In this document: piece by piece, positions 8,244 through 38,668 of the stretch
Layout of the letters: every line of letters starts with the position of its first letter
Position numbering within the stretch: position 1 is the first letter of the stretch
Assembly (NCBI RefSeq): GCF_003334305.1
Contig: NZ_QOWS01000024.1
From: Escherichia coli
Lineage (GTDB): Bacteria > Pseudomonadota > Gammaproteobacteria > Enterobacterales > Enterobacteriaceae
Reading direction: 5' to 3' (one strand)
Length of the DNA stretch: 64,000 nt
Program-made: the position numbers and the translations under genes
Notes under the pieces: model-generated
What the model saw: the letters and a program-made list of their open reading frames with translations, nothing else
The model's database searches: none
Told to the model about the DNA's origin: nothing

Positions 8244-8318
8244 AAAAATTCGTTGTCAGGATAAGGACAATCAATAAAGGACTTCTGTATGAGTCATACA
8301 GAAAGAACAGGATTTTAA

Positions 8319-25487: not shown

Positions 25488-25725
25488 AGTTCTTTTTTTC
25501 GCCCAGGTGCGCGAGTTGGTGGGAACAGATGCAACCGAAGTGGCTGCGGATTTCCCAACTGTTGAAGCGTTACGCCAGCACATGGCTGCGCAGAGCGATC
25601 GCTGGGCGCTGGCGCTGGAAGATGGCAAATTACTGGCTGCCGTCAACCAGACGCTGGTGAGTTTTGACCATCCGCTGACTGACGGCGACGAAGTAGCTTT
25701 CTTCCCGCCGGTAACCGGAGGTTAA
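25480..25725 (+). CDS. moaD: MoaD, molybdopterin synthase sulfur-carrier subunit
   Basis: 81 aa from [15 protein letters not shown], ends in GG; overlaps moaC end. Confidence 0.9.
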
Positions 25726-25726
25726 G

Positions 25727-26179
25727 ATGGCAGAAACCAAAATTGTTGTTGGTCCGCAGCCGTTCAGCGTAGGAGAAGAGTACCCGTGGCTGGCGGAGCG
25801 TGACGAAGACGGTGCGGTAGTCACCTTTACTGGTAAGGTGCGCAACCATAACCTGGGCGACAGCGTCAAAGCATTAACCCTCGAACACTATCCGGGGATG
25901 ACTGAAAAAGCACTGGCAGAAATTGTTGATGAAGCGCGTAACCGCTGGCCGCTGGGGCGCGTCACTGTGATTCACCGCATCGGGGAATTATGGCCGGGCG
26001 ATGAAATCGTTTTTGTCGGTGTCACCAGTGCGCATCGCAGCAGTGCGTTTGAAGCCGGGCAGTTTATTATGGATTATCTCAAAACCCGCGCACCGTTCTG
26101 GAAGCGCGAAGCCACGCCGGAAGGCGACCGCTGGGTTGAAGCTCGGGAGAGCGATCAGCAGGCGGCAAAACGCTGGTAG
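25727..26179 (+). CDS. moaE: MoaE, molybdopterin synthase catalytic subunit
   Basis: 150 aa ORF. Confidence 0.93.
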   Translation: MAETKIVVGPQPFSVGEEYPWLAERDEDGAVVTFTGKVRNHNLGDSVKALTLEHYPGMTEKALAEIVDEARNRWPLGRVTVIHRIGELWPGDEIVFVGVTSAHRSSAFEAGQFIMDYLKTRAPFWKREATPEGDRWVEARESDQQAAKRW

Positions 26180-26185
26180 TTTTTT

Positions 26186-26218
26186 GTTAGCCGGATAAGG
26201 CACCGCTGCGTCCGGCAA
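26186..26218. repeat. REP-like palindromic element after moaE
   Basis: GTTAGCCGGATAAGGCACCGCTGCGTCCGGCAA. Confidence 0.5.
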
Positions 26219-26315
26219 TTTCACCGCTCAGTACATGCGTTTACGCTGCGTCGATGCACAGCCTCATCATTTTGCAGTATCCTTAAGATATTCCTTATAT
26301 CTTCAGGAGATCGTC

Positions 26316-27020
26316 ATGGACAGATTCCCACGTTCTGATTCAATCGTACAACCCCGGGCTGGCTTGCAAACTTATATGGCGCAAGTCTATGGCTGGATGA
26401 CCGTTGGCTTGTTGCTGACCGCATTTGTTGCCTGGTATGCGGCTAATTCCGCGGCCGTGATGGAGCTGTTGTTTACTAACCGTGTCTTTTTAATCGGTCT
26501 GATCATCGCGCAATTAGCATTGGTTATTGTGTTATCAGCGATGATTCAAAAGCTGAGCGCAGGTGTAACGACGATGCTCTTTATGCTTTATTCGGCGCTG
26601 ACGGGTCTTACGCTTTCCAGTATATTCATTGTCTATACCGCTGCTTCTATCGCCAGTACTTTCGTCGTTACTGCCGGGATGTTCGGCGCAATGAGCCTGT
26701 ACGGTTACACCACGAAGCGCGATTTAAGTGGCTTTGGCAATATGCTGTTTATGGCGTTAATCGGCATTGTGCTGGCATCGCTGGTCAACTTCTGGCTGAA
26801 AAGCGAAGCATTGATGTGGGCAGTTACCTACATCGGCGTGATTGTCTTTGTCGGATTGACGGCGTATGACACTCAGAAATTGAAAAATATGGGTGAGCAG
26901 ATTGATACCCGCGACACGTCGAACCTGCGCAAATATTCCATTCTTGGCGCGTTAACCTTGTATCTGGACTTCATCAACCTGTTCCTGATGTTGCTGCGAA
27001 TTTTTGGCAACCGCCGTTAA
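26316..27020 (+). CDS. ybhL: YbhL, BAX-inhibitor-1 (TMBIM)-family inner-membrane protein
   Basis: 234 aa from MDRFPRSDSIV; 7 predicted TM segments. Confidence 0.88.
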   Translation: MDRFPRSDSIVQPRAGLQTYMAQVYGWMTVGLLLTAFVAWYAANSAAVMELLFTNRVFLIGLIIAQLALVIVLSAMIQKLSAGVTTMLFMLYSALTGLTLSSIFIVYTAASIASTFVVTAGMFGAMSLYGYTTKRDLSGFGNMLFMALIGIVLASLVNFWLKSEALMWAVTYIGVIVFVGLTAYDTQKLKNMGEQIDTRDTSNLRKYSILGALTLYLDFINLFLMLLRIFGNRR

Positions 27021-27038
27021 TTCTTTTTCACCATCAAT

Positions 27039-27068
27039 ATCCCGGCCATGTGTCGGGATTTTTTTTCT
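27039..27068 (+). terminator. Rho-independent terminator after ybhL
   Basis: Hairpin ATCCCG...CGGGAT followed by T8. Confidence 0.65.
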
Positions 27069-27224
27069 TACTAAAAACGACACTTAACAAGTACCAGGTA
27101 TAAAATACGCCTTATGGCGAGCGGAAGCGTTTTCCGTATCCATAAATACAAAAGTATTTTGTATGCGTGGTTTTAAATTTATTGATGGTGAATATTAATA
27201 TTTTTTCTAAGGACAACTAAAAGA

Positions 27225-27938
27225 ATGGAATCATATTCACAAAACAGCAATAAATTAGATTTTCAGCACGAGACCAGGATATTAAACGGTATATGGCTCA
27301 TTACCGCTTTAGGTTTGGTGGCAACCGCAGGACTGGCCTGGGGAGCTAAGTATCTCGAAATTACGGCAACCAAATATGATTCACCAACAATGTATGTCGC
27401 CATAGGGTTATTATTAGTTTGTATGTATGGCTTAAGTAAGGATATCAACAAGATAAATGCCGTCATCGCAGGCGTAATATATCTGTTTTTACTCTCTTTG
27501 GTGGCGATTGTCGTTGCAAGTTTAGCTCCTGTACCTGCCATTATCGTCGTGTTCAGCACTGCGGGCGCGATGTTTTTAATCAGTATGCTGGCCGGTTTAT
27601 TATTTAATGTTGATCCTGGTTCTCACCGTTTTATCATTATGATGACGTTGACAGGTTTGGCCCTGGTGATCATCATGAATGCCGCATTAATGAGTGAACG
27701 ACCCGTTTGGGTAATAAGTTGCTTAATGATTGTGTTATGGTCAGGCATTATCTCGCATGGACGAAATAAGCTCCTTGAATTGGCTGGGAAATGCCATAGT
27801 GAAGAGTTGTGGAGTCCGGTTCGTTGCGCTGTTACAGGTGCATTAACACTCTATTACTATTTTATCGGCTTCTTTGGGATACTTGCCGCGATAGCTATAA
27901 CGCTTGTCTGGCAAAGGCATACGCGTTTTTTTCATTAG
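27225..27938 (+). CDS. ybhM: YbhM, BAX-inhibitor-1-family inner-membrane protein (paralog of YbhL)
   Basis: 237 aa hydrophobic ORF. Confidence 0.85.
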   Translation: MESYSQNSNKLDFQHETRILNGIWLITALGLVATAGLAWGAKYLEITATKYDSPTMYVAIGLLLVCMYGLSKDINKINAVIAGVIYLFLLSLVAIVVASLAPVPAIIVVFSTAGAMFLISMLAGLLFNVDPGSHRFIIMMTLTGLALVIIMNAALMSERPVWVISCLMIVLWSGIISHGRNKLLELAGKCHSEELWSPVRCAVTGALTLYYYFIGFFGILAAIAITLVWQRHTRFFH

Positions 27939-31061: not shown

Positions 31062-31472
31062 ATGAAGTGGCAACAACGTGTTCGTGTCGCAACTGGTCTA
31101 AGTTGCTGGCAGATTATGTTGCATTTACTGGTAGTGGCGCTGCTGGTGGTGGGCTGGATGAGTAAGACTCTGGTTCACGTCGGCGTGGGATTATGCGCAC
31201 TGTATTGTGTCACGGTAGTGATGATGTTGGTGTTTCAGCGCCACCCCGAGCAACGCTGGCGTGAGGTGGCAGACGTGCTGGAAGAGCTGACCACGACCTG
31301 GTATTTTGGCGCAGCGCTGATTGTGCTGTGGCTGTTGTCCCGTGTACTGGAAAACAACTTTTTGCTGGCAATTGCAGGGCTGGCAATCCTTGCCGGCCCG
31401 GCGGTAGTTTCTTTGCTGGCGAAAGATAAGAAGTTACATCACCTTACGTCTAAACATCGCGTACGCCGCTGA
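31062..31472 (+). CDS. ybhQ: YbhQ, small inner-membrane protein
   Basis: 136 aa hydrophobic ORF; 3' end overlaps convergent ybhR. Confidence 0.8.
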
Positions 31473-32540
31473 CCCTGTCGTGGCCGTTATCACCAGTAGC
31501 GGCCACAAACTATTCCACACAATATCCAGACTCGCATCCTTCAAATAAATCTGCTTGGTAATGTCCGTAAAGTGGCGAATAGGGTTAATCCACGTCAGGT
31601 TTTGCAGCCATACTGGCATGTTTTCCACCGGAGAAACGTAACCGGAAAGGAGAATGGCGGGCATCATAAAAACAAACACGCCGATAAACGCCTGCTGTTG
31701 TGTCGAGCAGAGTGATGAAATCAACAGACCGAATCCCACCAGCGATAAACCGTAAATCACCATCGTAAAGTAGAACAGCGCCAGCGATCCGGCGAAGGGG
31801 ATTTGATACGCCCAGATACCAATCGCCAGCACAATGGTGGCCTGGAAGGTGGCGACAATTAACGCCGGTACGGCTTTGCCGATGAAGATCTGCCAGGTGG
31901 TGAGCGGCGAAACCAGTAGCTGATCGAGCGTACCTTGTTCACGTTCGCGGGCGACGGAAAGTGAAGTGACGATCATTACGCCGATAGTGGTGATCATGGC
32001 GATCAGCGACGGCACCACAAACCATTTGTAGTCAAGATTCGGGTTATACCAGTTGCGTACCACCAGCTCGCTGTTGTTAGGTTTCGGTTTTCCTTCCAGC
32101 AGCTCCTGCTGATAATTTTTGACGATCTGTTGCAGGTAGTTGGCGGCAATTTGCGCACTGTTGGAGTTACGCCCGTCGAGGATCAACTGCAACGGCGCGG
32201 TCTGGAAGGTATCCAGTTTGCGCGAGAAGTCAGCCGGGAAACGCACCAGTAGTAACGCCTTTTGTGTGTCGATGGTTGGGCGGATCTCCTGTGGGCTTTT
32301 CAGCAGCAGCACATGAGTAAAGGCGCTGGCGCGGGCAAAACGTTGGGTCAGCTCCACCGAATGCTCGCCGTTATCTTCATCGTAGATGGCGATGGTGGCG
32401 TTAGTCACTTCCAGCGTGGCGGCGAACGGGAACAGAATCACCTGAATAAGCACAGGTAAAATCAGAATCGCGCGGGTTTGCGGTTCGCGCAGCAGCGACT
32501 GCAACTCTTTGCGGATTAACGTCCATAAGCGATGAAACAT
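31434..32540 (-). CDS. ybhR: YbhR, ABC-2-type exporter permease
   Basis: 368 aa polytopic ORF. Confidence 0.9.
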
Positions 32541-32550
32541 GCTCTTCTCC

Positions 32551-33676
32551 CTAATCCAGCCGACGTTTGGTTTTCAGCCACGTCAGGCCGATAAACATCA
32601 CCGCCGAAGCGATCAAAAACAGCACGTTTACCACCAGCACCACTGGAATATTCCCGGCGAGGAACAGGCTTTGCAGGGTGCTGACGAAATAACGAGCGGG
32701 AATAATGTACGTCACCGCGCGGATCACCGCGGGCATACTGTCGATCTGAAAAATAAAGCCAGAGAGCATAATCGACGGCAGGAACGCGGCGTTCAGGGCG
32801 ACCTGAGCGGCATTGAACTGGTTGCGGGTAATCGTGGAAATCAGCAGCCCCATCCCCAGGGTACTGAGTAAAAACAGGCTGGAGATAAAAAACAGAATCA
32901 GCAGCGACCCGCGATACGGCACGCCGAGAATAAACACCGACACCAGCATACACAGCAGCATCGCCAGCATCCCGAGAAAGTAATAGGGGATCAGCTTACA
33001 CAGCAGCAGCTCCGTGCGGGTAATCTCCGTAGAGAGCAGAGCCTCCATGGTGCCGCGTTCCCATTCTCGCGCCACCACCAGCGAGGTGAGAATCGCGCCG
33101 ATGACCGTCATGATGATGGTCACCGCACCGGGGATAATAAAGTGCTGGCTAATCGCCGCCGGGTTAAACCAGTAGCGGGTTTGTACATCAATAAGCGGCT
33201 CAAAGGTCTGCCCGTTGTCCTCCGCCCGCTGCATTTGCCAGATCTGCCAGATCCCTTCGACATACCCCTGCACAAAGTTAGCGGTATTCGGCTCACTGCC
33301 GTCGGTGATCACCTGAATCGGTGCGGTGGCGTTGGCGCGCTCCATCTGTTCGGCGAAATCCACGGGAATAACCACCAGACCGCGAATTTTCCCCGCCTGC
33401 ATTTTGGCGATCAGTTCCTGACGGTTATCGCTGATGGTGGCGTCGATGTAGGGCGAACCGGTCATGGTGTGGGTGAAATCCAGCGCCGCTTCGCTACGCT
33501 GTTCCAGCAAAATCCCGACCCGCAGCTTGCTGGAGTCGAGGTTAATGCCGTAACCAAAAATAAACAGCAGTAGCAGTGGGATCACTACCGCAATCAGCCA
33601 GCTACTCGGATCGCGAACGATCTGCCGCGTCTCTTTGACGCACAGCGCCCGCACGCGACGCCAGGAAAGGATCGGG

Positions 33677-33684
<8 letters not shown>
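32551..33684 (-). CDS. ybhS: YbhS, ABC-2-type exporter permease
   Basis: 377 aa polytopic ORF, paralogous to YbhR. Confidence 0.9.
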
Positions 33685-37075
<3,391 letters not shown>

Positions 37076-37088
37076 CGCACAGTCCATT

Positions 37089-37110
37089 CTTAATCAAATG
37101 ATTGATTAAG
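37089..37110. promoter_or_regulatory. Candidate TetR-type operator palindrome upstream of cecR
   Basis: CTTAATCAA-atga-TTGATTAAG, perfect 9-bp inverted repeat 14 bp upstream of cecR start codon. Confidence 0.45.
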
Positions 37111-37303
37111 ATTATGACTCCATATGGGAGTTGTCCAGTATGGCTAAGAATTTTAGCTACGCCAGTCACAGGGATAATTTATGCGCTGCGTCACAAAAAC
37201 TGCTACACTCCGCTCCCTCATGACATTGTGGTTTTTGTCATTTTCCTTTTCAGTATCTCCCTGAAAACTACACCGGTAACGGTCGGGGCGGTTCGGAGTA
37301 GTT

Positions 37304-38668
37304 ATGTCTTTCGATTCTTTGGGTTTAAGCCCTGATATCCTGCGCGCCGTTGCCGAGCAGGGTTACCGTGAACCCACCCCTATTCAGCAGCAGGCGATCC
37401 CTGCGGTGCTGGAAGGCCGCGACCTGATGGCTAGCGCCCAGACCGGTACCGGTAAAACAGCGGGCTTTACGCTGCCGCTGTTGCAACACCTGATCACTCG
37501 CCAGCCGCACGCCAAAGGGCGTCGTCCGGTACGTGCGCTCATTCTTACCCCGACCCGTGAACTGGCTGCGCAGATTGGCGAAAACGTCCGTGATTACAGC
37601 AAATATTTGAACATTCGTTCGCTGGTGGTGTTTGGCGGTGTCAGCATTAACCCGCAAATGATGAAGCTGCGCGGCGGCGTTGATGTTCTGGTGGCAACAC
37701 CGGGACGTTTGCTGGACCTGGAACATCAAAATGCAGTGAAGCTGGATCAGGTTGAAATCCTCGTCCTCGATGAAGCTGACCGCATGCTCGACATGGGCTT
37801 TATCCACGATATCCGTCGCGTGTTAACAAAACTGCCAGCGAAACGCCAGAACCTGCTGTTCTCTGCGACCTTCTCTGACGATATTAAAGCCCTGGCGGAA
37901 AAACTGTTGCACAACCCGCTGGAAATCGAAGTGGCACGCCGCAATACCGCGTCTGATCAGGTGACCCAGCACGTTCACTTTGTTGATAAGAAACGCAAAC
38001 GCGAATTGCTGTCGCACATGATTGGTAAAGGGAACTGGCAGCAGGTGCTGGTGTTTACCCGTACCAAACACGGCGCTAACCATCTGGCTGAGCAGCTCAA
38101 TAAAGATGGCATCCGTAGTGCGGCGATCCACGGGAATAAATCGCAAGGTGCGCGTACCCGTGCGCTGGCTGATTTTAAATCGGGTGACATTCGCGTACTG
38201 GTGGCGACCGATATCGCTGCGCGCGGTCTGGATATCGAAGAGTTGCCGCACGTCGTCAACTATGAACTGCCAAACGTACCGGAAGATTATGTCCACCGTA
38301 TCGGGCGTACCGGTCGTGCGGCTGCTACCGGTGAAGCGTTGTCGCTGGTGTGTGTTGATGAACACAAACTGCTGCGTGATATCGAAAAACTGCTGAAAAA
38401 AGAGATCCCGCGCATTGCGATTCCGGGCTATGAGCCGGACCCGTCAATCAAAGCCGAACCGATCCAGAACGGTCGCCAGCAACGTGGCGGCGGCGGTCGT
38501 GGGCAAGGTGGTGGTCGCGGTCAACAGCAACCACGCCGTGGGGAAGGTGGCGCAAAATCTGCAAGCGCGAAACCTGCAGAAAAACCGTCTCGCCGCCTCG
38601 GCGATGCCAAACCGGCAGGCGAACAACAACGTCGCCGCCGTCCGCGTAAACCTACCGCTGCGCAGTAA
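37304..38668 (+). CDS. rhlE: RhlE, DEAD-box ATP-dependent RNA helicase
   Basis: 454 aa; DEAD, SAT, Q-motif; R/G-rich basic C-terminal tail. Confidence 0.95.

Follow-up and report, generated by a model that had tools for sequence, protein, structure and literature searches.

A conserved palindrome in the cecR/rhlE spacer of Escherichia coli as the probable operator of the TetR-family regulator CecR

An inverted repeat lies immediately upstream of cecR in Escherichia coli, in the spacer that separates this gene from the divergent rhlE. Does it serve as the operator of CecR, or does it belong to rhlE, to another DNA-binding protein or to a nucleic-acid structure? The question arises from an original prediction made on a stretch of 64,000 nucleotides of E. 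coli chromosomal DNA (contig NZ_QOWS01000024.1, hereafter the window), in which a perfect 9-bp inverted repeat around ATGA was proposed as the binding site of CecR. In this study, the repeat was analyzed with respect to its neighbouring genes, its probability of arising by chance, its conservation in E. coli, in other Enterobacteriaceae and upstream of distant CecR homologues, its promoter context and the published evidence on CecR binding.

The palindrome and its neighbourhood

The gene cecR (ybiH; 36404-37075, minus strand) encodes a TetR-family regulator of 223 aa, as indicated by the RefSeq annotation of an identical E. coli record, PDB entry 9i1x and Pfam analysis of homologues. Its product is identical to the sequence of the CecR crystal structure 9i1x (E = 3e-148) and also matches the Salmonella structure 1t33, and the Pfam domains PF00440 (TetR_N) and PF09209 (CecR_C) were found on CecR homologues. 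The gene adjoining the palindrome thus encodes a TetR-fold HTH protein, as expected of a TetR-family operator. The genes ybhG-ybhF-ybhS-ybhR (31434-36401, minus strand) encode a membrane-fusion-like protein and an ABC exporter; on the basis of annotation, synteny and the literature, they are co-transcribed with cecR and constitute its regulated cargo. The same kinds of evidence identify rhlE (37304-38668, plus strand) as a divergent DEAD-box helicase gene that is reportedly positively affected by CecR. The longest cecR ORF (227 aa) begins 12 nt upstream of the annotated ATG, at a minus-strand ATG (37085-37087) that abuts the palindrome. This upstream start was rejected and the annotated one retained, because the upstream ATG is not conserved outside Escherichia and the crystal structure contains the 223-aa form.

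The palindrome is located within the 228-bp cecR/rhlE spacer, and the RefSeq annotation of the identical E. coli record agrees with the original placement in this intergenic region. Positions 37089-37110 read CTTAATCAAATGATTGATTAAG, with 9-nt arms CTTAATCAA and TTGATTAAG that are, as had been described, exact reverse complements around the spacer ATGA. According to the repeat finder, the pairing continues for a further base at either end, so that two 10-nt arms (37088-37097 and 37102-37111) with 100% complementarity enclose the 4 central nt. On the evidence of repeat finding, shuffles and 40-mer conservation, the E. coli form of the operator is therefore written here as TCTTAATCAA-atga-TTGATTAAGA (37088-37111, not assigned to either strand; 830656-830679 in K-12 MG1655), with perfect 10-bp arms and a 4-nt centre. 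The distance of 14 bp originally given between the repeat and the cecR start codon holds as a difference in coordinates between the ATG (37075, minus strand) and the 9-bp arm; as a gap it does not hold, since 13 nt intervene for the 9-bp arm and 12 nt for the 10-bp arm.

The palindrome has the dyad symmetry sought in a TetR-family operator, namely an inverted repeat of about 15-30 bp. When the 228-bp spacer was shuffled 20,000 times with its dinucleotides preserved, only 0.15% of the shuffles yielded perfectly complementary arms of 10 bp or more with 0-8 nt between them, and 0.5% yielded such arms of 9 bp or more. The spacer itself has no second inverted repeat that is perfect over 10 bp or more. 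At up to 3 mismatches, the 20-mer family consensus described below has a single match in the 64-kb window, where 0.01 would be expected.

Several other features of the window were recorded in passing. A perfect palindrome with 10-bp arms, TTCTGTATGAGTCATACAGAA, lies at 8283-8303 inside the ybhI coding sequence and has CTGT...ACAG ends, with a spacing one base longer than that of the LexA box. At 55456-55483, a near-continuous perfect palindrome of 28 bp without a T-run, TCTGCATGGTTATGCATAACCATGCAGA, sits in a gap bounded by the end of one ORF (55317/55170) and the stop of a minus-strand ORF (55493), and may be a hairpin between neighbouring genes. Three consecutive genes of the Bax-inhibitor-1/YccA family, ybhL and two more, are annotated at 25602-27938 in the matching RefSeq record. 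K-12 carries two such genes, ybhL and ybhM, and an extra paralogue in the present strain is possible.

Conservation of the site and its promoter context

Of 5424 complete E. coli genomes, 5399 carry an unchanged, single copy of the 40-mer that has the palindrome at its centre; the surrounding 997 bp show at least 99% identity in only 1010 of the same genomes. For the comparison across species, one genome was taken per species, which gave 80 Enterobacteriaceae loci with CecR identities of 74-100%, including those of Escherichia, Citrobacter, Salmonella, Kluyvera, Enterobacter, Klebsiella, Raoultella, Kosakonia and Leclercia. The original prediction had been staked on conservation of the palindrome in other Enterobacteria, and it came through this comparison: a 20-bp core (37090-37109, not assigned to either strand; TTAATCAAATGATTGATTAA on the E. 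coli plus strand) is present in all 80 loci, with 0-2 mismatches from the consensus TTAATCAATCGATTGATTAA, which is itself a perfect palindrome. In 79 of the loci, 13-16 nt separate the core from the start codon of cecR; in the remaining one the start codon was wrongly adjusted. In the site-anchored alignment, little or no variation is seen at 18 of the 20 core positions, in contrast to the diverging flanks and remaining spacer, and no part of the spacer is better conserved across the 80 species than the palindrome. A contig labelled Chryseobacterium sp. (L071, CACSKA010000002.1) carries a cecR gene 76% identical to that of E. coli together with an Enterobacteriaceae-type operator and flanks; this assembly is most likely mislabelled or contaminated.

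Of the 79 distinct sequences, 66 have a perfectly palindromic core centred on TCGA; the centre is TCAT in seven (Escherichia and one other Enterobacteriaceae genome) and TCGT in four (Kluyvera), and in Salmonella and several Citrobacter the perfect symmetry covers 24 bp. Escherichia departs from the family consensus at two central bases only (37098-37099), where its plus strand has AT against TC in the consensus and the palindrome is broken. Because the TCGA centre found elsewhere makes the palindrome continuous, the conserved unit is a spacerless 20-bp palindrome, and the arrangement of 9-bp arms around a 4-nt spacer is an Escherichia-specific, centrally degenerate form of it.

In a homologue search, the 120 best matches were all close relatives with at least 76% identity. 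Representatives with 38-59% identity to CecR, obtained by a search of protein representatives, were also located on contigs, and eight such distant homologues were examined. At 16 nt from the start of the 59% homologue, the identical core forms part of a perfect palindrome 30 bp long. The 49% homologue, also divergent from a DEAD-box helicase gene, is preceded by TTAATCATATGATTGATTAA; the 43% and 40% homologues, both of which come from GC-rich genomes and adjoin ybhG/ybhF-like genes, are preceded by ATCAAACGATTGAT and TTAATCAATCGATTGA, respectively; and the 39% homologue has the variant site TTAATCGTATGATTGAGTAA. A recognisable site was thus present upstream of five of the eight (39-59% identity), a sixth, with 38% identity, having the half-sites TTACACAATCG/CGATTGTGTAA re-spaced, and none was found upstream of the other two (46% and 38%). 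In an alignment of six homologues (59-39%), the named residues of the HTH segment ATTR.IA..(A/S)GQNIAAI.Y.F are invariant except at one A/S position. The site therefore accompanies its regulator across genomes, in 80/80 Enterobacteriaceae loci and 5/8 distant homologues. Since motif and regulator are co-inherited and the recognition helix is unchanged, CecR-type proteins appear to read the sequence of the palindrome, and the co-inheritance offers independent computational support for such recognition.

The alignments also suggest where the cecR promoter may lie. A nearly invariant block in the 80 aligned sequences, TGGACA (37132-37137, minus strand), is the putative -35 hexamer, and TAATCT (37109-37114, minus strand) is the putative -10 hexamer. 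The family form of the latter is TAnnnT, with positions 1, 2 and 6 invariant in the 79 distinct sequences; 17 nt separate it from TGGACA, and the operator core begins with its last T. TAATCT matches TATAAT at 3/6 positions, and a consensus promoter scan detected, at its thresholds, no sigma-70 promoter in the spacer, so the proposed overlap of promoter and operator is drawn from the conserved TGGACA-17 nt-TAnnnT arrangement, which adjoins or overlaps the core. The hexamer CATAAT was rejected as a -10 element and TAATCT preferred, because only 15 nt separate CATAAT from TGGACA and because Kosakonia and Klebsiella have CATAAA, so that the sixth position is not constant. With TAATCT as the -10 element, a start of transcription close to 37102 would be expected, which would place the operator core at about -7 to +13, a classical position for steric repression. 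Between the putative -35 and -10 elements there is a small inverted repeat, ACTCC-atatg-GGAGT (37117-37131, containing CCATATGG), which is not conserved in other genera in the alignment and is probably incidental.

Published binding evidence and alternative readings

Binding of CecR in this spacer has been reported before. According to three later papers (PMC12998191, PMC5934670 and PMC6237786), a DNA sequence recognised by CecR was identified within the cecR-ybhGFSR/rhlE spacer by Yamanaka et al. 2016 (Yamanaka, Shimada, Yamamoto and Ishihama, Microbiology 162:1253, doi 10.1099/mic.0.000292), and in genomic SELEX the cecR/rhlE spacer was the single CecR target. [quoted passage not shown] A ChIP-exo study (Gao et al. 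2018) states that YbiH is bound in vivo at ybiH/rhlE, consistent with SELEX, and that its motif is palindromic and AT-rich, and describes this motif as inverted repeats separated by 7 nt. An odd spacer of 7 nt is incompatible with the symmetry centre of the palindrome analyzed here.

With no further perfect inverted repeat of 10 bp or more in the cecR/rhlE spacer, the palindrome agrees with a CecR site that is located in this spacer and is a complete palindrome. The abstract of the 2016 Yamanaka paper is said to give a 'complete palindromic sequence', AATTAGTT-AACTAATT. We take this to be the exact complement of TTAATCAA...TTGATTAA written 3'->5', and treat it as a lead and not as a test. Searches with the operator sequence in both orientations, and with the form that the abstract reportedly gives, found no quotation of it in the searchable full texts, which exclude that paper. 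The palindrome is very probably identical with the published CecR footprint. The published E. coli K-12 site has the same organism, spacer and regulator, is likewise a single genomic target and is tied to the same repression of cecR-ybhGFSR, with no known difference. The prediction of a CecR operator is thus right yet not new, the site having already been mapped experimentally.

A different reading would make the palindrome chiefly an upstream activator site at which CecR directly stimulates the divergent rhlE promoter, with auto-repression as a secondary effect. It is in keeping with the summary in the literature of rhlE as positively controlled and of CecR as a dual regulator, and with the divergent position of rhlE relative to cecR in 76 of the 80 species. 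However, the distance from the operator to the cecR ATG is fixed (13-16 nt), whereas that to a conserved promoter/leader block on the rhlE side (GGGATAWTTTATGCG...) ranges from 37 to 135 nt without helical phasing, and the site persists in four loci (three Klebsiella species and one Pluralibacter) where no rhlE was seen within 2.5 kb; ybhG, for its part, follows cecR in all 80 loci. In E. coli, moreover, the operator centre would stand about 85 nt upstream of the putative rhlE start, a long way for a TetR protein to make direct contact. With the distance to cecR fixed, the distance to rhlE variable and the site surviving without rhlE, we conclude that the palindrome is anchored to the cecR promoter and not to that of rhlE, and a primary role as an rhlE activator site seems unlikely. 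The reported positive effect on rhlE is more likely to be indirect or lineage-specific than a conserved direct activation. It could come, for example, from relief of divergent-promoter competition, and may be a lineage-specific result of the interplay of two divergent promoters rather than a conserved function of the site.

Other readings leave both CecR and rhlE aside. A different protein, such as a global regulator of AT-rich palindromes, might bind the palindrome while CecR binds elsewhere in the spacer; the sequence is indeed AT-rich and lies in a promoter region, but no second palindrome of similar conservation exists in the spacer, the motif accompanies CecR homologues in unrelated genomic contexts and in GC-rich genomes, and SELEX and ChIP-exo put CecR in this very spacer, all of which makes another binder very unlikely. 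The palindrome might also act as a nucleic-acid structure, be it as a hairpin of the cecR 5' UTR, as a terminator/attenuator or as a DNA cruciform, and a 36-mer folded as single-stranded DNA does reach -8 kcal/mol (z = -5.3). Yet it is the sequence that is conserved and not the pairing, the arms being invariant and free of compensatory changes, and in most genera the palindrome is continuous and has no loop. The stem is AT-rich and without a T-run, the terminator scan was negative at the palindrome, no Rfam match was obtained for it, and the putative transcription start falls inside the upstream arm, which would leave the full hairpin untranscribed. The palindrome therefore has neither the GC-rich stem and T-run of a terminator nor the covariation or RNA family of a structured RNA, and we regard a structural role as very unlikely. 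That it is simply a functionless chance repeat in AT-rich promoter DNA might be argued from the commonness of short palindromes and from several other perfect repeats in the window with arms of at least 9 bp. This view is contradicted by the shuffle probability of 0.0015 and by the near-invariance of the site in 5424 E. coli genomes and 80 species amid variable neighbouring bases; chance is effectively refuted by the conservation data, and its probability is negligible.

We therefore consider it very probable that CecR (YbiH), the TetR-family product of the gene directly downstream, uses the palindrome as its operator. The original assignment to CecR is supported by the spacer binding reported in the literature, by conservation in 80 species and by the tracking of homologues. 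A Fur box was also considered for the palindrome and rejected, no credible match to the Fur-box consensus being apparent by eye.

The rhlE leader (37169-37303, plus strand, about 135 nt) showed features of its own. It is very strongly conserved in 70 distinct Enterobacteriaceae sequences, with the blocks GTCACAAAAnCTGCTACACTCCGC, ATGACATTGTGGTTTTTGTCAT and CCCTGAAAACTACACC...GGTCGGGGCGGT, and has a predicted consensus structure of -18.2 kcal/mol (z = -2.1 for the single-sequence fold). Three predicted pairs keep pairing through two-sided changes, two of them in three loci of the Raoultella/Klebsiella group, where an ATGACA/TGTCAT repeat is seen by eye to become ATGGCA/TGCCAT. No Rfam family was matched by the leader, which looks like a conserved structured 5' UTR of rhlE.

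Proposed mechanism and relation to known operators

In the absence of ligand, a CecR homodimer, or possibly two, would bind the dyad site with one HTH on each half-site TTAATCAA(T). The site runs from the last base of the putative -10 element (TGGACA-17 nt-TAATCT) to about +13. As the core begins within that element and extends past the putative start, bound CecR would occlude RNA polymerase and so bring about auto-repression of cecR-ybhGFSR. Once a ligand, for which the literature names cephalosporins and chloramphenicol, occupies the C-terminal domain, CecR would be released and the exporter genes de-repressed.

Such a site would resemble TetR/tetO and the boxes of RutR (TTGACCAnnTGGTCAA), NemR and AcrR in combining a dyad with a TetR-fold homodimer, a putative promoter overlap and ligand-relieved repression. 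It differs from them in that its sequence is unrelated and its core is longer (20 bp). Unlike the operators of single-dimer TetR-family members, the CecR site has perfect symmetry over up to 24-30 bp (Salmonella, Citrobacter and the 59% homologue), and unlike those regulators CecR, which is placed in TetR subfamily D in the literature, has an extra C-terminal CecR_C domain. With QacR IR1 and the CgmR operators it shares a long palindrome (at least 20 bp) over the transcription start of a drug-export operon, the start being a putative one in the case of CecR. Each of its half-sites has nested AATC-AATC units, which in principle might allow two registers; the likeness to these two-dimer operators is one of length only. 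The ancestral operator would be an uninterrupted, nested AATC/GATT palindrome of 20-30 bp (TT-AATC-AATC-GATT-GATT-AA). It may be speculated that it was bound by two CecR dimers in the manner of QacR or CgmR, and that the change from TCGA to TCAT at 37098-37099 was an adaptive weakening that raised the basal or inducible expression of YbhGFSR; we regard this scenario as rather doubtful.

Beyond the published CecR site, the present analysis makes a modest addition, comprising the conservation across species, the family-wide 20-bp consensus as an uninterrupted ancestral palindrome, the Escherichia-specific central degeneracy at 37098-37099, the overlap with a putative -10 element and start, and the uncoupling of the site from rhlE. 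An exact operator is useful for the design of reporters, for the interpretation of intergenic mutations selected by drugs or uncouplers and for the planning of CecR-DNA co-crystals. A preprint (bioRxiv 10.1101/392977) describes two lineages of CCCP-evolved E. coli isolates with mutations in cecR and in the spacer between cecR and rhlE; if the intergenic ones fall in 830656-830679, they would be operator mutations obtained in vivo. CecR, whose gene belongs to the core genes of Escherichia and Salmonella, controls YbhG and the YbhFSR exporter, and these proteins influence how sensitive the cells are to cephalosporins and chloramphenicol.
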